Origin: Octopus vulgaris
Taxonomy: Eukaryota
Length of the DNA stretch: 64,000 nt
Direction: 5' to 3'
Assembly (NCBI GenBank): GCA_951406725.2
Contig: OX597828.1
Coordinates: 52,576,001-52,640,000 of the forward strand
Of the stretch, positions 3,579 through 40,888 are shown one piece after another. Each line of letters opens with the position of its first letter. The first letter of the stretch is position 1. The notes beneath the pieces were generated by a model. The model did no database searches. It worked only from the letters and a program-made list of their open reading frames with translations, and had not been told where the DNA came from. The position numbers were made by a program, and so were the translations under genes.

Positions 3579-3943
3579 TATATATATATAAATATATATA
3601 TATATAATATATATATATAATAAATATAAAAAAAAAAATATATAATATATAATACATATATATATATATAATAAATATAAAATAAAATAATATTCTCTAA
3701 ATGAGATATAGACAGTGACTGCTCCGTAATATAAGGGATATTAGCCAACTGAATCTGGCTAGGGACAGGGCAGGGTGGTGGGGGGTGTCACTGTTGCATT
3801 TAGCCCCAGGCGAACATCAACGTCACCAGATAGGCCTGACGCCATCACGGCGTCCTTTATCTTGCAAAGGGAGATCACTCACCAAGAAGCCGATACCACA
3901 CACGGACCTAGGTTTCAAGGTGTGTTGCCTATTATCAACGTGT

Positions 3944-29827: not shown

Positions 29828-31020
29828 CATATTCCCCAGGGGTGACAAATGCAAGGGCAATACAAAGTCGGGGTTTAACCTAGAAAGAAATGATTAGCAA
29901 AATAAAATCAATCGTAGAAAGAAAGTAAAAAAGTGTACACAATAAAAACAAAGGAAAGAAGAGCACAGTGCACATGAAAATGGTGACAGTGATGGGATCC
30001 TCCTTCATACAAGAGGAACTCTAAGGACAAATGAGGAACCCTCGATCTAAGATCTGCTTGAGTACTAATAGCAAGTGCCATTTCTGGTTTCAGTTTTCCG
30101 AGTGACAGTTCTTCTACACTTAGAACGGTGCTATTCACTCTTTCCATTTTTTGCAACTTTCATTCACCTTCCAATAAATTCGAAGACAGTACCTTCTTCT
30201 TCACTTTCACTTTCCATTTCAATCGAAATTTGAAGAAGTCGATGAGGAATCTACCAATGAGAACTCTCTGTGTCCTCATACATTTCAGCATCTACAAGAC
30301 GATCTCTTTAGCAATAGTCCTCAATAACAATAGTCCTCAATCAAACTGCTTCTCTGCCCAGTAAGAGTGGGGTGACGGGCGATCATTCCTATCGATAGAA
30401 TTTTCCTTCTGACATGCGTTAGCACCTCTTCGACAAAAATTCACATGTCAGCGATGCCCGAACACTCAACGAGTGTGTGCAGAGCGGTTTCGTCACTCTG
30501 CACACATCTCAGACCAGACCATTTGACGGCACATCAGTGTCTGTATAGTTTATCATCACCGATGGAAGACTCGTAGTATAATAATATATAACATTATGTA
30601 ATAATATATAATCTTCCGACTCTGGTTAGACTTAGTTCATCATTTGTTTGTATTTAAAAAATTGTTGCTTCAAATCGGAGAATATATATCATTATGCTAT
30701 ATTATTATACAGTTTTATATATATATATATCCGTAATAATGAAGGGTGAAATTAATTAATTTGGAATAATTATCAATTACACCAAGTAGTCTTCGGCATG
30801 TAAAAGCCTCATTCGAGGAAAATTTAAGTAATACTAAGCAATAAAGGGTTTAGCAACGAATTGCCTTACCACATACCGAATTTAGAAATAGCAGTCAAAG
30901 AGTTATAGCTATTTCTTCTACTAAAAGGAGATCTCAGTAAAAAACACAGCAATTGGAAGGCAGACACAAACAGGTAAGAGAGAATGAATTGACGGCAATC
31001 TATCATACAATTTTAAGTTA

Positions 31021-31120
31021 TCTACGGACGCACGTTTCGAAATCAAGTTTTTAGGAAAGCATGAGAATTAAATATTAAATAATTCTACGTTACCCAAACT
31101 TCTTTTCTCTTCAGCGTAGA
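31021..31120 (-). ncRNA. Type I hammerhead ribozyme motif, copy 1
   Basis: Reverse complement of 32638-32737; core intact. Confidence 0.85.
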
Positions 31121-31616
31121 ATACTATAATCATAAGTGATTATATATTGAATTTTGAGATACTAGAAGGCACCAACTCAACTCAGTATCAGAGCGAGCTA
31201 GAATCCGCAACTAGTATCACCAAACTCAACGTGTGAATGAAAGGATTGTGTCACCAGCCCCTTCCCACCCGCGTGTAGCCAAAACAAGATGCTATGGTCA
31301 TCTACTGAGATAAAATATGGTTATCCGTAATAATGAAGGGTGAAATTAATTAATTTGGAATAATTATCAATTACACCAAGTAGTCTTCGGCATGTAAAAG
31401 CCTCATTCGAGGAAAATTTAAGTAATACTAAGCAATAAAGGGTTTAGCAACGAATTGCCTTACCACATACCAAATTTAGAAATAGCAGTCAAAGAGTTAT
31501 AGCTATTTCTTCTACTAAAAAGGGAGATCTCAGTAAAAAACACAGCAATTGGAAGGCAGACACAAACAGGTAAGAGAGAATGAATTGACGGCAATCTATT
31601 ATACAATTTTAAGTTA

Positions 31617-31716
31617 TCTACGGACGCACGTTTCGAAATCAAGTTTTTAGGAAAGCATGAGAATTAAATATTAAATAATTCTACGTTACCCAAACTTCTT
31701 TTCTCTTCAGCGTAGA
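31617..31716 (-). ncRNA. Type I hammerhead ribozyme motif, copy 2
   Basis: Reverse complement of 32638-32737; core intact. Confidence 0.85.
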
Positions 31717-32211
31717 ATACTATAATCATAAGTGATTATATATTGAATTTTGAGATACTAGAAGGCACCAACTCAACTCAGTATCAGAGCGAGCTAGAAT
31801 CCGCAACTAGTATCACCAAACTCAACGTGTGAATGAAAGGATTGTGTCACCAGCCCCTTCCCACCCGCGTGTAGCCAAAACAAGATGCTATGGTCATCTA
31901 CTGAGATAAAATATGGTTATCCGTAATAATGAAGGGTGAAATTAATTAATTTGGAATAATTATCAATTACACCAAGTAGTCTTCGGCATGTAAAAGCCTC
32001 ATTCGAGGAAAATTTAAGTAATACTAAGCAATAAAGGGTTTAGCAACGAATTGCCTTACCACATACCGAATTTAGAAATAGCAGTCAAAGAGTTATAGCT
32101 ATTTCTTCTACTAAAAAGGGAGATCTCAGTAAAAAACACAGCAATTGGAAGGCAGACACAAACAGGTAGAGAGAATGAATTGACGGCAATCTATCATACA
32201 ATTTTAAGTTA

Positions 32212-32311
32212 TCTACGGACGCACGTTTCGAAATCAAGTTTTTAGGAAAGCATGAGAATTAAATATTAAATAATTCTACGTTACCCAAACTTCTTTTCTC
32301 TTCAGCGTAGA
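32212..32311 (-). ncRNA. Type I hammerhead ribozyme motif, copy 3
   Basis: Reverse complement of 32638-32737; core intact. Confidence 0.85.
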
Positions 32312-32637
32312 ATACTATAATCATAAGTGATTATATATTGAATTTTGAGATACTAGAAGGCACCAACTCAACTCAGTATCAGAGCGAGCTAGAATCCGCA
32401 ACTAGTATCACCAAACTCAACGTGTGAATGAAAGGATTGTGTCACCAGCCCCTTCGATGACCATAGCATCTTGTTTTGGCTACACGCGGGTGGGAAGGGG
32501 CTGGTGACACAATCCTTTCATTCACACGTTGAGTTTGGTGATACTAGTTGCGGATTCTAGCTCGCTCTGATACTGAGTTGAGTTGGTGCCTTCTAGTATC
32601 TCAAAATTCAATATATAATCACTTATGATTATAGTAT

Positions 32638-32737
32638 TCTACGCTGAAGAGAAAAGAAGTTTGGGTAACGTAGAATTATTTAATATTTAATTCTCATGCT
32701 TTCCTAAAAACTTGATTTCGAAACGTGCGTCCGTAGA
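32638..32737 (+). ncRNA. Type I hammerhead ribozyme motif, copy 4
   Basis: TCTACG (stem I)-CTGAAGA (core)-32651..32719 stem II (GAAA/TTTC, AAGTTT/AAACTT, AGAATTA/TAATTCT)-GAAA-CGTGC-GTC (cleavage predicted after C32731)-CGTAGA (stem I'). Confidence 0.88.
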
Positions 32738-33232
32738 TAACTTAAAATTGTATGATAGATTGCCGTCAATTCATTCTCTCTTACCTGTTTGTGTCTGCCT
32801 TCCAATTGCTGTGTTTTTTACTGAGATCTCCCTTTTTAGTAGAAGAAATAGCTATAACTCTTTGACTGCTATTTCTAAATTCGGTATGTGGTAAGGCAAT
32901 TCGTTGCTAAACCCTTTATTGCTTAGTATTACTTAAATTTTCCTCGAATGAGGCTTTTACATGCCGAAACTACTTGGTGTAATTGATAATTATTCCAAAT
33001 TAATTAATTTCACCCTTCATTATTACGGATAACCATATTTTATCTCAGTAGATGACCATAGCATCTTGTTTTGGCTACACGCGGGTGGGAAGGGGCTGGT
33101 GACACAATCCTTTCATTCACACGTTGAGTTTGGTGATACTAGTTGCGGATTCTAGCTCGCTCTGATACTGAGTTGAGTTGGTGCCTTCTAGTATCTCAAA
33201 ATTCAATATATAATCACTTATGATTATAGTAT

Positions 33233-33332
33233 TCTACGCTGAAGAGAAAAGAAGTTTGGGTAACGTAGAATTATTTAATATTTAATTCTCATGCTTTCCT
33301 AAAAACTTGATTTCGAAACGTGCGTCCGTAGA
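33233..33332 (+). ncRNA. Type I hammerhead ribozyme motif, copy 5
   Basis: Same sequence as 32638-32737. Confidence 0.85.
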
Positions 33333-33518
33333 TAACTTAAAATTGTATGATAGATTGCCGTCAATTCATTCTCTCTTACCTGTTTGTGTCTGCCTTCCAA
33401 TTGCTGTGTTTTTTACTGAGATCTCCCTTTTAGTAGAAGAAATAGCTATAACTCTTTGACTGCTATTTCTAAATTCGGTATGTGGTAAGGCAATTCGTTG
33501 CTAAACCCTTTATTGCTT

Positions 33519-33558
<40 letters not shown>

Positions 33559-33589
33559 CATTATTAAATCTCAGAATGAGATATATAAT

Positions 33590-33641
<52 letters not shown>

Positions 33642-33688
33642 CATTAATAAATCTCCGAACGAGATGTAAACAGTAACCGCTCGACAAC

Positions 33689-33825
33689 GTAAAGTGTACT
33701 AGCCATCTGAATGTGGCTAGCCACTGGGGGTGGGTGTTACTGAAGCTTATAGCCCCAGGAGATAAGCTTCAGTAACAACCCACCCCCCAGTGGCTAGCCA
33801 CATTCAGATGGCTGATACACTTTAC
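33689..33825. repeat. Near-perfect fold-back palindrome (~62-bp arms, 11-nt loop)
   Basis: agccatctgaatgtggctagccactgggggtgggtgttactgaagcttat / loop agccccaggag / ataagcttcagtaacaacccaccccccagtggctagccacattcagatggct. Confidence 0.92.
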
Positions 33826-33859
<34 letters not shown>

Positions 33860-33960
33860 TAGTAATATTATGACAACAAAAGAATGAATGAGACCTCGAT
33901 ATTATGTAAACAGAGGAATTTATCTGTAAAATAATATGTGACAATTGTTCGGTTGCCATA

Positions 33961-34019
33961 ATAAAACTCCGAGTTTCAGATGTCGGGGCGGAAATCTGCT
34001 CCGGCATCTCGTCAGTTAT
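33961..34019 (-). ncRNA. Type I hammerhead motif of an unrelated family
   Basis: Minus: ATAA-CTGACGA-GATGCCGG...CCGACATC-T-GAAA-CTC-G-GAG-TT-TTAT; CUGANGA and GAAA intact, one extra nt after stem II. Confidence 0.65.
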
Positions 34020-34746
34020 AAAGACAAACAAAAATGCTATGAAAATGACCGTTAAACAAAGGGAAATTACTATGAAGATGACCGTTATTAAGACAAACAA
34101 AAGAGTTATTAGAATGACCGTTAAATAAAGGGATAAACCCGAAAGGGGAGAAAGTAAAAACCGCTCAGAATTCGCATGTACATACATACACATGTGCACA
34201 CGCACACCCACGGACATGTGCATATAAACATATGTTCGCTCACACTCGTGTGCAACACATAAATGCACACCCCCACACACACACATGTATGTATACATAT
34301 CTATATATATGAGTTAGTTTTATGATGTTTATATTCGTGCATATATATGTGTGTGTATCTATAAACACACACGCACACGAAGTGGGTGTGAGGAATATGG
34401 GGTAGACGGTGACACATGCGCACACGACCCGAACCTACGTGTTCTTATGTACTGCAGGTTTCAGACGTAGGTCGCTCCTCTAAGCGGGAGATTCAGTCCT
34501 TCGGAGTGCTCAACAACAAAACTGATAACTGGTCCTATGATGTTTGTCTCTTTAAATTAAAGCATGATGAATGCAACTCAAATATACCACATCAAATGTG
34601 GCATATTTTCCGCAGATTACGCCAGTGTATGCGTGTCAGTGTGTGTATGTGTGTGTGCGTGTGTGCGTGCGTTTGTGTGTATGTGTGCGTGTGTGTTTGG
34701 GTATCTATATATACACACACATACATGCGCACACATATATATATAC

Positions 34747-36308: not shown

Positions 36309-36404
36309 TGCAGCAGCAGCAGTAGTAGTAGTAGTAGTAGTAATGGAAGTAGCGTTGCTGATGGATGTGATGGTGGCGATTGTTGCCATCGGTGATACTG
36401 GTAG

Positions 36405-39400
36405 TGATGGTTGTGATGGTTTGTGATGGTTTGTGGTGGTTTGTGATGGTTTGTGGTGGTTTGTGATGGTTTGTGGTGGTTTGTGATGGTTTGTGATGGT
36501 TTGTGTTGGTTTGTGATGGTTGTGATGGTTTGTGATGGTTTGTGATGGTTTGTGATGGTTTGTGGTGGTGTGTGATGGTTGTGTTGGTTTGTGATGGTTT
36601 GTGATGGTTTGTGATGGTTTGTGGTGGTTTGTGATGGTTTGTGGTGGTTTGTGATGGTTTGTGATGGTTTGTGTTGGTTTGTGATGGTTGTGATGGTTTG
36701 TGATGGTTTGTGATGGTTTGTGATGGTTTGTGATGGTTGTGGTGGTGTGTGATGGTTTGTGGTGGTTTGTGATGGTTTGTGGTGGTTTGTGATGGTTTGT
36801 GATGGTTTGTGTTGGTTTGTGATGGTTGTGATGGTTTGTGATGGTTTGTGATGGTTTGTGATGGTTTGTGTTGGTGTGTGATGGTTGTGTTGGTTTGTGA
36901 TGGTTTGTGATGGTTTGTGATGGTTTGTGGTGGTTTGTGATGGTTTGTGGTGGTTTGTGATGGTTTGTGATGGTTTGTGTTGGTTTGTGATGGTTTGTGA
37001 TGGTTTGTGATGGTTTGTGATGGTTTGTGATGGTTTGTGATGGTTTGTGGTGGTGTGTGATGGTTGTGTTGGTTTGTGATGGTTTGTGATGGTTTGTGAT
37101 GGTTTGTGGTGGTTTGTGATGGTTTGTGGTGGTTTGTGATGGTTTGTGATGGTTTGTGTTGGTTTGTGGTGGTTTGTGATGGTTTGTGATGGTTTGTGAT
37201 GGTTTGTGGTGGTTTGTGATGGTTTGTGATGGTTGTGTTGGTTTGTGATGGTTTGTGATGGTTTGTGATGGTTTGTGGTGGTTTGTGATGGTTTGTGGTG
37301 GTTTGTGATGGTTTGTGATGGTTTGTGTTGGTTTGTGATGGTTGTGATGGTTTGTGATGGTTTGTGATGGTTTGTGATGGTTTGTGATGGTTTGTGGTGG
37401 TGTGTGATGGTTGTGTTGGTTTGTGATGGTTTGTGATGGTTTGTGATGGTTTGTGGTGGTTTGTGATGGTTTGTGGTGGTTTGTGATGGTTTGTGATGGT
37501 TTGTGATGGTTTGTGATGGTTGTGATGGTTTGTGATGGTTTGTGATGGTTTGTGATGGTTTGTGATGGTTTGTGGTGGTTGTGATGGTTTGTGATGGTTT
37601 GTGGTGGTTTGTGATGGTTGTGTTGGTTTGTGATGGTTTGTGATGGTTTGTGATGGTTTGTGGTGGTTTGTGATGGTTTGTGGTGGTTTGTGATGGTTGT
37701 GTTGGTTTGTGATGGTTTGTGATGGTTTGTGATGGTTTGTGGTGGTTTGTGATGATTTGTGATGGTTTGTGATGGTTGTGTTGGTTTGTGATGGTTTGTG
37801 ATGGTTTGTGATGGTTTGTGGTGGTTTGTGATGGTTCTGTTGGTTTGTGATGGTTTGTTTTGGTTTGTGATGGTTTGTGATGGTTGTGATGGTTTGTGAT
37901 TGTTGTGATGGTTTGTGATGGTTTGTGATGGTTTGTGGTGGTTTGTGATGGTTGTGTTGGTTTGGAATGGTTTGTGATGGTTAGTGATGGTTTGTGATGG
38001 TTTGTGGTGGTTTGTGATGGTTGTGATGGTTTGTGGTGGTTTGTGATGGTTGTGTTGGTTTGTGATGGTTTGTGATGGTTTGTGATGGTTTGTGGTGGTT
38101 TGTGATGGTTGTGATGGTTTGTGATGGTTTGTGATGGTTTGTGATGGTTTGTGATGGTTTGTGATGGTTTGTGGTGGTTTGTGATGGTTGTGTTGGTTTG
38201 TGATGGTTTGTGATGGTTTGTGATGGTTTGTGATGGTTTGTGATGGTTTGTGATGGTTGTGATGGTTTGTGATGGTTTGTGATGGTTTGTGATGGTTTGT
38301 GATGGTTTGTGGTGGTTTGTGATGGTTTGTGATGGTTGTGTTGGTTTGTGATGGTTTGTGATGGTTTGTGATGGTTTGTGGTGGTTTGTGATGGTTGTGT
38401 TGGTTTGTGATGGTTTGTGATGGTTTGTGATGGTTTGTGATGGTTTGTGATGGTTTGTGATGGTTTGTGATGGTTGTGATGGTTTGTGGTGGTTTGTGAT
38501 GGTTGTGTTGGTTTGTGATGGTTTGTGATGGTTTGTGATGGTTGTGATGGTTTGTGATGGTTTGTGATGGTTTGTGATAGTTTGTGATGGTTAGTGGTGT
38601 TTGTGATGGTTGTGTTGGTTTGTGATGGTTTGTGATGGTTTGTGGTGGTTTGTGGTGGTTTGTGATGGTTGTGTTGGTTTGTGATGGTTTATGATGGTTT
38701 GTGATGGTTTGTGATGGTTTGTGGTGGTTTGTGATGGTTGTGTTGGTTTGTGATGGTTTGTGATGTTTTGTGATGGTTTGTGATGGTTTGTGATGGTTTG
38801 TGATGGTTGTGATGGTTTGTGATGGTTGTGATGGTTTCTGATGGTTTGTGGTGGTTGTAATGGTTTGTGATAGTTTGTGATGGTTTGTGATGGTTTGTGA
38901 TGGTTGTGATGGTTTGTGATGGTTGTGATGGTTTGTGATGGTTTGTGATGGTTGTGATGGTTTGTGATGGTTTGTGATGGTTTGTGATGGTTTGTGATGG
39001 TTGTGATGGTTTGTGGTGGTTTGTGATGGTTGTGTTGGTTTGTGATGGTTTGTGATGGTTTGTGATGGTTTGTGATGGTTGTGATGGTTTGTGATGGTTT
39101 GTGATGGTTGTGATGGTTTGTGATGGTTTGTAATGGTTTGTGATGGTTTGTGATGGTTTGTGGTGGTTTGTGATGGTTGTGTTGGTTTGTGATGGTTTGT
39201 GATGTTTTGTGATGGTTTGTGATGGTTTGTGGTGTTTTGTGATGGTTGTGTCGGTTTGCGATGGTTTGTGATGGTTTGTGGTGGTTTGTGATGGTTGTGT
39301 TGGTTTGTGACGGTTTGTGATGGTTTGTGATGGTTTGTGGTGGTGTGTGATGGTTGTGTTGGTTTGTGATGGTTTGTGATGGTTTGTGATGGTTTGTGAT

Positions 39401-40732
39401 GGTTGTGATGGTTTGTGATGGTTTGTGATGGGTTGTGATGGTTTGTGGTGGTTTGTGATGGTTGTGTTCGTTTGTGATGGTTTGTGATGGTTTGTGATGG
39501 TTGTGATGGTTTGTGATGGTTTGTGATGGTTTGTGATAGTTTGTGATGGTTAGTGGTGTTTGTGATGGTTGTGTTGGTTTGTGATGGTTTGTGATGGTTT
39601 GTGGTGGTTTGTGGTGGTTTGTGATGGTTGTGTTGGTTTGTGATGGTTTGTGATGGTTTGTGATGGTTTGTGGTGGTTTGTGATGGTTTGTGGTGGTTTG
39701 TGATGGTTGTGTTGGTTTGTGATGGTTTGTGATGGTTTGTGATGGTTTGTGTTGGTTTGTGATGATTGTGATGGTTTGTGATGGTTGTGATGGTTTCTGA
39801 TGGTTTGTGGTGGTTTGTGATGGTTGTGTTGGTTTGTGATGGTTTGTGATGGTTTGTGATGGTTTGTGATGGTTTGTGATGGCTTGTGGTGGTTTGTGAT
39901 GGTTGTGTTGGTTTGTGATGGTTTGTGATGGTTTGTGGTGGTTTGTGATGGTTGTGTTGGTTTGTGATGGTTTGTGAATGGTTTGTGATGGTTTGTGGTG
40001 GTTTGTGATGGTTGTGTTGGTTTGTGATGGTTTGTGATGGTTTGTGATGGTTTGTGATGGTTTGTGGTGGTTTGTGATGGTTGTGTTGGTTTGTGATGGT
40101 TTTTGATGGTTTGTGATGGTTGTGATGGTTTGTGGTGGTTTGTGATGGTGGTGTTGGTTTGTGATTGTTTGTGATGGTTTGTGATGGTTTGTCGTGGTTT
40201 GTGATGGTTGTGTTGGTGTGTGATGGTTTGTGATGGTTGTGATGGTTTGTGATGGTTTGTGATGGTTTGTGATGGTTTGTGATGGTTGTGATGGTTTGTG
40301 ATGGTTGTGATGGTTTGTGTTGGTTTGTGATGGTTTGTGATGGTTTGTGATGGTTTGTGGTGGTTTGTGATGGTTGTGTTGGTTTGTGATGGTTTGTGAT
40401 GGTTTGTGATGGTTTGTGGTGGTTTGTGATGGTTGTGTTGGTTTGTGATGGTTTATGATGGTTTGTGATGGTTTGTTGTGGTTTGTGATGGTTGTGATGG
40501 TTTGTGATGGTTTGTGATGGTTTGTGATGGTTTGTGGTGGTTTGTGATGGTTGTGTTGGTTTGTGATGGTTTGTGATGGTTTGTGATGGTTTGTGATGGT
40601 TGTGATGGTTTGTGATGGTTTGTGATGGTTGTGATGGTTTGTGATGGTTGTGATGGTTTGTGATGGTTGTGATGGTTTGTGATGGTTTGTGATTGTTTGT
40701 GATGGTTTGTGATGGTTTGTGATGGTTGTGAT
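36405..40732. repeat. ~4.3-kb satellite of 10-bp unit GGTTTGTGAT (variants GGTTGTGAT, GGTTTGTGGT, GGTTGTGTT)
   Basis: Direct reading; over 400 units; plus strand almost C-free. Confidence 0.97.
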
Positions 40733-40888
40733 GCTGCTGGAGTAAGTTGATGCTTGTTATGTTATTGCAGACTCGATACCAATTGATTAACCCCGAATTC
40801 GGTTTTGTAAGGTCTTTGTGATACGCGCCTGATCAGTCACTCGTCTGGTAATAACTAGAATCCTTTTTTGGTACCTGTTCCAGCTGTT

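Follow-up and report, generated by a model that had tools for sequence, protein, structure and literature searches.

An inverted, two-armed insertion of a young non-LTR retrozyme family in the Octopus vulgaris genome

Introduction

How does a unit of about 595 nt that carries a ribozyme and no ORF come to stand five times in succession between two runs of (AT)n? The array lies within a stretch of 64,000 nucleotides of the Octopus vulgaris genome, called the window here. A first-pass annotation made from the letters had described it as a young, head-to-tail hammerhead array of the retrozyme class, possibly mobilised in trans by the reverse transcriptase (RT) of a Penelope-like element (PLE). 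We find that the array represents a single insertion from a family that is young, dispersed and without ORFs, and that this family is a non-LTR retrozyme, an already known kind of element for which a Penelope origin had previously been proposed. The family keeps an unusually clear record of its mode of insertion.

Results

Layout of the locus

The array consists of three minus-strand units and two plus-strand units placed back to back (Table 1), so the head-to-tail order in the first-pass annotation is wrong, with the strand switching at 32455/32456. Other parts of that description hold: the five units are near-identical (99.2–100% to unit 2), (AT)n lies on both flanks, and the unit is ORF-less, with stop-free frames of at most 67 aa and neither an RT nor a GIY-YIG ORF. 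Numbering positions in the ribozyme sense (S), units 3 (S61–596), 4 (S23–596) and 5 (S1–493) are incomplete. The left arm has its 3' end at 30731, at the distal end site D, with an ATA microhomology to 30728, while the 3' end of the right arm, 33520, falls on the proximal end site P, so that this arm has no ~100-nt tail. At the inversion junction there are no inserted bases and no microhomology. TRF did not report the array because its period limit was 500.

A fold-back read could also leave a long, near-perfect inverted repeat in an assembly, and the copies do differ by homopolymer indels. The chance that the inversion is such a chimera is nevertheless negligible, as the same architecture, with fixed and differing arm ends, is present at dozens of loci in five families, and the arms are asymmetric about the junction (S61 versus S23).

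Table 1 Features of the array in the window
Feature	Position	Strand	Details
(AT)n target, left flank	30716..30730
Left arm	30731..32455	-	2.9 units, reading leftward: S61–596, S1–596, S1–596
Inversion junction	32455..32456		5'-truncated ends S61 and S23 joined
Right arm	32456..33520	+	1.8 units, reading rightward: S23–596, S1–493
(AT)n target, right flank	33521..33557
Type I hammerhead	31021..31120	-	motif starts at 31119; predicted cut after 31027
Type I hammerhead	31617..31716	-	motif starts at 31715; predicted cut after 31623
Type I hammerhead	32212..32311	-	motif starts at 32310; predicted cut after 32218
Type I hammerhead	32638..32737	+	motif starts at 32639; predicted cut after C32731
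Type I hammerhead	33233..33332	+	motif starts at 33234; predicted cut after C33326
Complete cut-to-cut monomer	32732..33326	+	595 nt, 35.5% GC
Conserved 3' module (S378–596 + S1–21)	32811..33049	+	predicted multibranch domain with long-range closing stem
Tail	32930..33028	+	~100 nt, from end site P (S496) to D (S591–601)

The monomer is predicted to be highly paired, with a circular fold of -158.7 kcal/mol compared to -121.2 ± 6.8 kcal/mol for 25 shuffles. Both end sites sit in unpaired, AU-rich stretches of the predicted fold of the 3' module, which we infer to be an RT docking site; its hairpins include S449–533 and S540–580. Covariation within the module is modest: both sides have changed in 5 of its 56 pairs, all in the closing stem, and the covariation term is about 0. 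A transcript across the strand junction would be expected to fold into a hairpin of ~1.07 kb. Because the arms are not head-to-tail, the read-through transcription first proposed should release no more than two ~595-nt monomers when it covers the minus arm, and a single one when it covers the plus arm.

A dispersed family with a conserved hammerhead

One 25-mer of the unit has 481 exact matches genome-wide (control, 0), the family occupies ~280 loci, and full units are 97–100% identical (40 scored places of 2207 candidates), consistent with the youth claimed for the array. Four sister families were found, with units of 554–601 nt where measured, and all five families (A–E) are ORF-less wherever examined. 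Among family A loci, 65 of 93 are multi-unit, with an internal divergence of about 0.2%. Extrapolated, our sample accounts for the total of 481, so that few copies of that 25-mer would be left over for a large assembled master array. A search of the literature found no description of the family, and the octopus repeat-annotation paper (PMC13282606) mentions neither hammerhead nor ribozyme in the text and supplement consulted.

All five window units carry a type I hammerhead that is predicted, from its sequence, to cut itself. The motif reads UCUACG-CUGAAGA-stem II-GAAA-CGUGCG-UC/CGUAGA (slash, predicted cut, after C298 in S numbering) and comprises a 6-bp stem I, CUGAAGA, a stem II that is a 69-nt hairpin in family A, GAAA and the palindrome ACGUGCGU. 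The window copies have the type I core (CUGANGA, GAAA and an NUH cut triplet), an open stem I of ~6 bp and a closed stem II. A descriptor search returned 7 matches in the window compared to 1 in 10 shuffled windows, placing the motif above chance. An Rfam search, suggested as a check in the first-pass annotation, gave no match in the window at the gathering score, and the 26 matches at E<=10 included no hammerhead model, likely as a result of the long stem II.

Of the stem architecture first described, the 6-bp stem I stands, but the palindromic stem III cannot close inside a single copy, where it has a 2-nt loop. The stem III palindromes recorded, ACGUGCGU, ACGUACGU and ACGCGCGU, are short and permit a double hammerhead, and the unconstrained two-strand MFE structure is exactly that double hammerhead (-49.8 versus 2 x -20.2 kcal/mol). 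The lone hammerhead folds with z = -1.11, and its MFE structure differs from the active fold. The folding models predict that the dimer is the only active form and that the monomer ribozyme is inactive.

Conservation among genomic paralogues was also named as a check: of 148 family A units (65 loci), 144 have an intact core and 146 an indel-free cut-site junction. Stem I is fully paired (6/6) in all five families, each with a different sequence; stem III is palindromic throughout, and the closing pairs of stem II co-vary in family B. The family C hammerhead has a U3–A8 core swap, and families C and E have an unpaired base preceding stem II. Compensatory changes of this kind have preserved the ribozyme in the sister families.

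Fixed ends, paired arms and an (AT)n target

For an unbiased sample we took the first 100 of the 481 25-mer matches, which gave 59 loci, 58 of them usable (L158 had no HSP >= 90% and was left out of the counts); loci duplicating one place were entered once in the end-rule and private-variant counts. In these 58 loci, the 3' end falls at S476–505 (53 arms) or S591–596 (31 arms) in 84 of 86 arms, whereas the 5' ends scatter. About half of the insertions have the inverted two-armed form, and 26 of 27 two-armed loci pair a P end with a D end (even at p = 0.5, P = 2e-7). Over five families the rule holds in 73 of 77 two-armed loci, a count biased by the use of tail-containing queries to find families B, D and E. 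Flanking (AT) runs, no more than 40 nt away, are present to left and right of 51 of the 58 loci, and every one of the 58 has such a run on one side or more, compared to 289 of 2900 control windows (10%). Any target-site duplication is hidden within the (AT)n.

Arms cross zero to four cut sites (46, 26, 8, 5 and 1 arms, respectively), a smooth decay with arbitrary stop phase. Under uniform scoring of the five families, 7 of 68 5' stops fall 0–8 nt from a cut site, where about 5 are expected; a first count, made before uniform scoring, had been 4 of 20 (P = 0.03). Arms ending at or just after a cut site include those at L139 (a 4.3-unit arm stopping 5 nt from the site), L149, L363, L090, L093 and L374, and one cut-site junction, at L169, is broken.

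The fixed P and D sites, the tail, the inversion and the microsatellite target together form the signature of a PLE insertion; the PLE-type hallmarks present are fixed 3' ends, variable 5' truncation, an inverted truncated copy, a tail at one end and a microsatellite bias. Given the end sites, the one-P-one-D rule and the (AT)n target, the first-pass suggestion of a Penelope-like RT acting in trans is probably right. We consider it probable overall that the array is a non-LTR retrozyme insertion of two back-to-back arms in (AT)n, likely copied in trans by a PLE RT/GIY-YIG protein.

Search for an autonomous partner

With every insertion hallmark being PLE-like, the genome might instead hold an autonomous PLE whose pLTR is this unit, the arrays being truncated copies of that element. 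Our GIY-YIG search for a partner covered part of the candidates: with 150 of 6136 candidates listed and ~60 places fetched, no autonomous PLE with a matching 3' module was found, nor was one found at 30 loci of a second endonuclease family. The unit has no pLTR match among the PLE loci sampled, and its 3' end resembles no autonomous PLE family among those sampled, a small part of the 6136 candidates. Queries with four diverged 3' modules returned further ORF-less families only. The genome does hold PLE ORFs, among them an intact, Neptune-like one of 781 aa (L061, 2245–4587). We regard the pLTR alternative as improbable, as the units continue into one another across the whole 595 nt, at none of the 58 unbiased loci do they lead on into a PLE ORF or the sequence of another element, and the five diverged families are ORF-less wherever examined. 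The unit itself was rejected as an autonomous PLE, there being no RT plus GIY-YIG ORF within it or contiguous with it at the 58 unbiased loci, and the linkage to such ORFs that the first-pass annotation proposed to look for is absent at these loci. Apparent contacts with other elements occur at L075, L038, L057, L285, L224 and L088; those examined, at the first four of these loci, were rejected as linkage, being separate insertions that share one (AT)n.

Variants within insertions

Within one subfamily, units of the same locus differ by 1.95 substitutions per kb and units of different loci by 6.16, and units on opposite arms are as similar as units on the same arm (2.5 versus 2.2 substitutions per kb). 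Subfamily variants are present in every unit of an insertion. In 65 multi-unit loci, 15 locus-private variants are common to all units of their own insertion, 9 of them on both arms, and two double variants occur genome-wide solely in the three units of their own locus. Private variants common to both arms point to a template of a single unit, possibly a circle.

Private variants common to all units would also result from local amplification of the DNA by unequal crossing-over after the insertion of one unit or of a detached pLTR, an origin put forward in a preprint (bioRxiv 10.64898/2026.07.22.740005). This origin is highly improbable here, as most family A loci are already multi-unit at their low internal divergence, arm lengths decay smoothly with arbitrary stop phase, and inverted arms are often both multi-unit with common variants.

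Two-site priming by a PLE protein on a linear multimer, uncleaved or partly cleaved, would do without a circle and leave the ribozyme to trim 5' ends or ride as a passenger. Mosaic (intermediate) variant patterns, ten in family A and four in family E, are unlike the product of one pure circle, and the few arms that end at or just after a cut site would suit a partly cleaved linear multimer; additionally, hammerhead cleavage is dispensable for an anole PLE in vitro (PMC11167929). We nonetheless judge a linear template unlikely. Such arrays would lose length to 5' truncation with each generation, but arms that pass as many as four cut sites are found; subfamily and private variants in all units require that the lineage went through a one-unit bottleneck at some point; for the two double variants no parent was found; and just 19 of 79 unit-specific variants recur at other loci, where no common order was observed.

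Among family A private variants, A>G changes make up 6 of 15 all-unit cases compared to 6 of 108 unit-private cases (post hoc P = 7e-4); in family E none of 9 all-unit variants is A>G. Unit-private T>C changes outnumber A>G changes by 21 to 6 in family A (P = 0.05) and by 9 to 5 in family E. A tentative reading, to which we give somewhat less than an even chance, is that each array was reverse-transcribed directly, in rolling-circle fashion, from a single circular ribozyme RNA, that a Neptune-type protein primed this twice, at two fixed sites in a conserved RNA docking structure with no sequence in common with the helper element, and that A-to-I edits of the template sometimes appear in every unit.

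Discussion

The anatomy of the insertions, their end sites, the one-P-one-D rule, the target, the conserved motif and the common private variants are observed, and from them we infer an enzyme, a cleavage, a dimer fold and a circle that would act as follows. A tandem array would be transcribed, and pairing between the stem III palindromes of two adjacent hammerheads would lead to the excision of 595-nt monomers, probably circularised by a host ligase. The 3' module, conserved and structured, would then be bound by a PLE protein that makes a nick in each strand of an (AT)n target. Primed by these nicks, one on each strand, reverse transcription would begin at the fixed internal sites P and D, which are ~100 nt apart and lie downstream of the cut site by 200 and 300 nt. 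Each cDNA would extend for a random length, passing the cut site up to four times, and joining of the two 5'-truncated cDNAs would give inverted arms with the tail on one arm alone.

The origin of tandem and inverted PLE insertions, with hammerhead circles as templates, has been a matter of proposal since 2014 (PMC4209133), and questions about PLE insertion and circles are called unresolved in passages of bioRxiv 10.64898/2026.07.22.740005, PMC11167929 and PMC8557442. Hundreds of young, short, readable insertions bear on both the insertion mode and the circular template, and if the rolling-circle reading is true they would be genomic proof that circles serve as retrotransposition templates and would explain the tandem and inverted forms of PLEs. 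The RNA, being small and structured and having its start sites mapped, also offers a defined substrate for work in vitro. Furthermore, hammerheads with a long stem II are missed by Rfam, and each two-armed copy, if transcribed, would give long double-stranded RNA.

The octopus family resembles the metazoan non-LTR retrozymes of Cervera and de la Peña (PMC7229834) in its ORF-less, low-GC, tandem units with a type I hammerhead and high predicted self-pairing, which supports the class first assigned to the array, and its ribozyme is predicted to depend on dimers, as in axolotl retrozymes. PLEs are described there as the likely mobilisers and circles as the likely templates. The octopus units are larger (554–601 nt with a 69-nt stem II, compared to units of about 170–400 nt), about half of the insertions have inverted arms with fixed ends, whereas the word 'inverted' is absent from the main text of that paper, and expression and circles were demonstrated for those retrozymes whereas the octopus family is known here from its sequence. 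Contrary to the impression in the first-pass annotation, the unit is not unusually long for a retrozyme, since bioRxiv 10.64898/2026.07.22.740005 gives consensus lengths of 51–972 bp. That preprint agrees with us overall that retrozymes are non-autonomous PLE sequences, on evidence of co-occurrence and pLTR similarity in Xenopus, where ours is insertion anatomy and variants within arrays; one of nine Xenopus retrozyme dimers cleaved in vitro. Its main text includes no mollusc, leaves tails and priming unmentioned and favours local tandem amplification.

Chlamys elements such as MRC1 (PMC8557442) are likewise non-autonomous, moved by PLEs and frequently present as several copies arranged head-to-tail; they resemble autonomous families at their 3' end, whereas no 3' match was found for the octopus family among the PLE families sampled, and most are without canonical hammerheads, whereas the octopus hammerheads are conserved. 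The minimal hammerheads of PLEs (PMC4209133) share with those described here a palindromic stem III, a dimer fold, the U3–A8 swap and the unpaired base before stem II, and their circles were proposed as templates for reverse transcription of more than one unit; the octopus hammerheads differ in their ORF-less multi-unit arrays and far longer stem II. Neptune and Naiad PLEs (PMC8557442) show the same anatomy of 5' truncation, partial tandems, an inverted 5'-truncated copy, a tail at one end and a (TA)n bias. In vitro, the protein of the anole PLE Poseidon makes nicks in the two strands of AT-rich DNA and begins synthesis at a pair of internal RNA sites that bound the tail, with cleavage unnecessary and uncleaved RNA the main substrate (PMC11167929). 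Compared to PLEs, the octopus family has no ORF, a tail of ~100 nt rather than the 30–40 nt reported, and, set against those accounts (PMC8557442, PMC11167929), a strict one-P-one-D rule measured here. It is like anole Poseidon (PMC11167929) in having two internal starts downstream of the hammerhead, with both target strands apparently nicked.

Organization of the array

The first-pass annotation described the array at 30731-33520 as five head-to-tail hammerhead units. The five units and their hammerheads are present, but they do not share a single orientation, as the strand switches within the array. We number positions (S) along a 596-nt unit in ribozyme sense, defined from the minus strand of 31325-31920. 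From the order and orientation of the two arms (runs of same-strand units), it follows that the ribozyme strand has its 3′ ends on the outside of both arms, with the 5′-truncated ends meeting centrally. As had also been noted, (AT)n lies left of the left arm and right of the right arm, and the array is without an ORF, its longest frame being 67 aa. A descriptor scan of the window returned the five array copies and two unrelated motifs, with 1 match in 10 shuffled windows; the Rfam hammerhead search suggested in the first-pass annotation gave zero hammerhead matches. The small inverted insertion nearby appears to be a further insertion of Penelope-like element (PLE) type into the array's (AT)n tract, and its hairpin accounts for sub-threshold miRNA matches in the Rfam search.

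Features of the window and of fetched genomic loci (L-numbers)
Feature	Position	Strand	Description
Left arm	up to 32455, after (AT)n	minus	leftwards S596-1, S596-1, S596-61
Right arm	from 32456, then (AT)n	plus	rightwards S23-596, S1-493
Inversion junction	32455/32456		clean
Second, unrelated type I hammerhead	33857-34060	minus	core at 34015 CUGACGA, 31-nt stem II, GAAACUCGGAGUU; 3′ end of element enters (AT)n at ~33857; relatives in L272 and L065 flanks
Small inverted two-armed insertion	33558-33828		arms 33640-33755 and 33760-33828, ends ~47 nt different; 35-nt end stub at 33558
Possible U3-A8 hammerhead	near 3938	minus	single copy, CACACG UUGAUAA ... GAAACCUAGGUC CGUGUG
10-bp repeat array	36404-40733		4.3 kb, unit GTGATGGTTT, ~440 copies, extreme strand skew
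Further hammerhead family	L038:37-125, L246 flank		CUGAUGA, long stem II, GAAACACAUGUC; ends in (AT)n ~60 nt past cut site
Young Neptune-like family	L061:906-4587, L062-L071		see text

A conserved hammerhead in five families

A unit search of the 2.8-Gb assembly gave 2207 candidate places, and in the 40 scored, full units were 97-100% identical. A 25-mer from the 3′ module, the conserved structured part of the unit, has 481 exact matches genome-wide (control, 0); the first 100 of these led to an unbiased sample of 59 fetched loci, 58 with a copy at ≥90%. Four sister families, B to E, were recovered using diverged modules noticed in flanks as queries. The array's own family, A, is 80% identical to B throughout, and aligns with C and E only across ~200 nt of the 3′ module (74-75% identity).

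Units and stem I of the five families
Family	Arrangement	Unit (nt)	Stem I
A		596	UCUACG/CGUAGA
B	tandem	601	CCUACG/CGUAGG
C	tandem	554-556	AUUAUG/CAUAAU
D			CCCAUG/CAUGGG
E	tandem	563-565	UUUGAG/CUCAAA

The ribozyme call had been made to depend on conservation of the core among genomic paralogues, and the core is intact in 144/148 family A units. The second pair of stem II alternates between A-U and G-C inside family B, stem III is palindromic in every family, and the family C core is U3-A8, a swap also reported for PLE hammerheads (PMC4209133). The predicted fold of a single copy is not the active shape; two copies, folded without constraint, give exactly the double hammerhead. On this model the ribozyme would cut multimers yet spare monomer circles, an established idea for double-hammerhead types (PMC4209133). 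In a recent test of frog dimers, 1/9 was cleaved (bioRxiv 10.64898/2026.07.22.740005).

Arms end at two fixed sites

In the unbiased sample, 53/86 arms end at S476-505 (proximal site P), 30 of them at S496, and 31/86 at S591-596 or a few bases past (distal site D), leaving 2/86 elsewhere; 5′ ends are scattered. One P arm is paired with one D arm in 26/27 two-armed loci (P = 2e-7), and single-armed loci comprise 25 P and 6 D. Families B to E again use P and D, with the same spacing from a conserved hairpin as in A, and over five families the pairing holds in 73/77 two-armed loci, with sister samples biased by their queries. An AT run is touched by 58/58 loci, on both sides in 51, compared with 10% of control windows.

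P and D each fall in an AU-rich stretch that is predicted to be unpaired, immediately 3′ of a hairpin; these hairpins are enclosed in a predicted domain with a long-range closing stem. Of 56 pairs, 5 change on both sides between families, all of them in this stem, and most pairs of the inner hairpins are unchanged or altered on one side; whole monomers of A and C have predicted folds >5 SD better than shuffles. Both arms stop ≤12 nt apart in 5/26 loci versus 1.15 expected (P = 0.002), which hints that the two arm syntheses are coupled.

The template

Cut sites are crossed 0, 1, 2, 3 or 4 times by 46, 26, 8, 5 and 1 arms, respectively, and the junction there is free of indels in 146/148 units. 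Within a single insertion, units are separated by 1.95 substitutions/kb, compared with 6.16 when loci belonging to one subfamily are set against each other; opposite arms and neighbouring units are equally alike. Private variants in family A (93 loci, 65 multi-unit) fall into three classes: 15 are shared by all units of the insertion that carries them (9 of the 15 on both arms), 108 are confined to one unit and 10 are intermediate; the corresponding classes in family E number 9, 83 and 4. Two double variants occur genome-wide only in the three units of their own locus.

A variant present in every unit requires a one-unit step or gene conversion. Given these variants, and since truncation would otherwise erode arrays, we lean towards one unit read repeatedly as the template; a circle, put forward in 2014 (PMC4209133) and 2020 (PMC7229834), would be its simplest form. 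This reading is weakened by mosaic variant patterns, some of which may be polishing errors or conversion, by the few arms stopping at the cut site, whose excess is not significant, and by the anole PLE, for which uncleaved RNA suffices as template (PMC11167929). In one family A copy (L169) the sequence is interrupted precisely at the predicted cut site, where six foreign bases stand and the 3′ half of the ribozyme is gone; this may be the trace of a template jump that started from a cleaved 5′ end.

Sense-strand A>G changes make up 6/15 all-unit variants in family A versus 6/108 unit-private ones (P = 7e-4, post hoc), an enrichment absent in family E. With three looser cases included (n = 9), 7 sites are predicted paired and 4/9 have UAG context, compared with 13/161 adenosines. 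A-to-I editing prefers this context, and editing of a single template would fit the A>G excess.

A candidate helper

Several families in the genome have a C-terminal GIY-YIG and a CxxxxCxxC linker, and are Neptune-like as that group is described in PMC8557442. A young one among them retains many intact 781-aa frames for RT plus GIY-YIG endonuclease; ahead of these lies a separate 359-aa frame for which Pfam gave no match. This family has a 1-kb 3′ UTR with repeated ATTGG/TGACGTC blocks, a U3-A8 hammerhead-like motif ~70 nt from the end, and a terminus in (AT)n. The 3′ module was not found in any family sampled, in a search that covered about 60 fetched places out of 6136 GIY-YIG candidates and 30 loci of a second endonuclease family, and did not target Naiads. 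From target and hammerhead use, a Neptune-type protein is the likeliest helper.

Two other PLE families were seen. A second Neptune-like family (3′ UTRs of L073, L074, L271, L274 and L275) carries a motif resembling a hammerhead, and its 3′ ends fall at two points ~35 nt apart, a spacing typical of PLE tails; an old, abundant family with a different C-terminal endonuclease (L308-L337; L332) has 5725 candidates, mostly broken.

Relation to retrozymes and PLEs

Judged by sequence, the array family classes as a non-LTR retrozyme and not as an autonomous PLE, and it inserts in the PLE manner. The class is not new, since a PLE origin of animal retrozymes has been published from phylogeny (bioRxiv 10.64898/2026.07.22.740005). 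Our literature search, Repbase and Dfam aside, found no description of this family, nor any account of a 100-nt tail (the stretch between P and D) or of retrozymes inserted as inverted arms with two end sites. With this family, two questions can be put directly to the test: whether circles serve as templates, and whether priming takes place at two sites. Its insertions match PLE anatomy as described in PMC8557442. In vitro, a PLE protein nicks both strands of AT-rich DNA and initiates at two positions inside the RNA, which mark the limits of the tail (PMC11167929), a result that the two fixed end sites and AT target fit. The tail is ~100 nt here, whereas in PLEs it is 30-40 nt.
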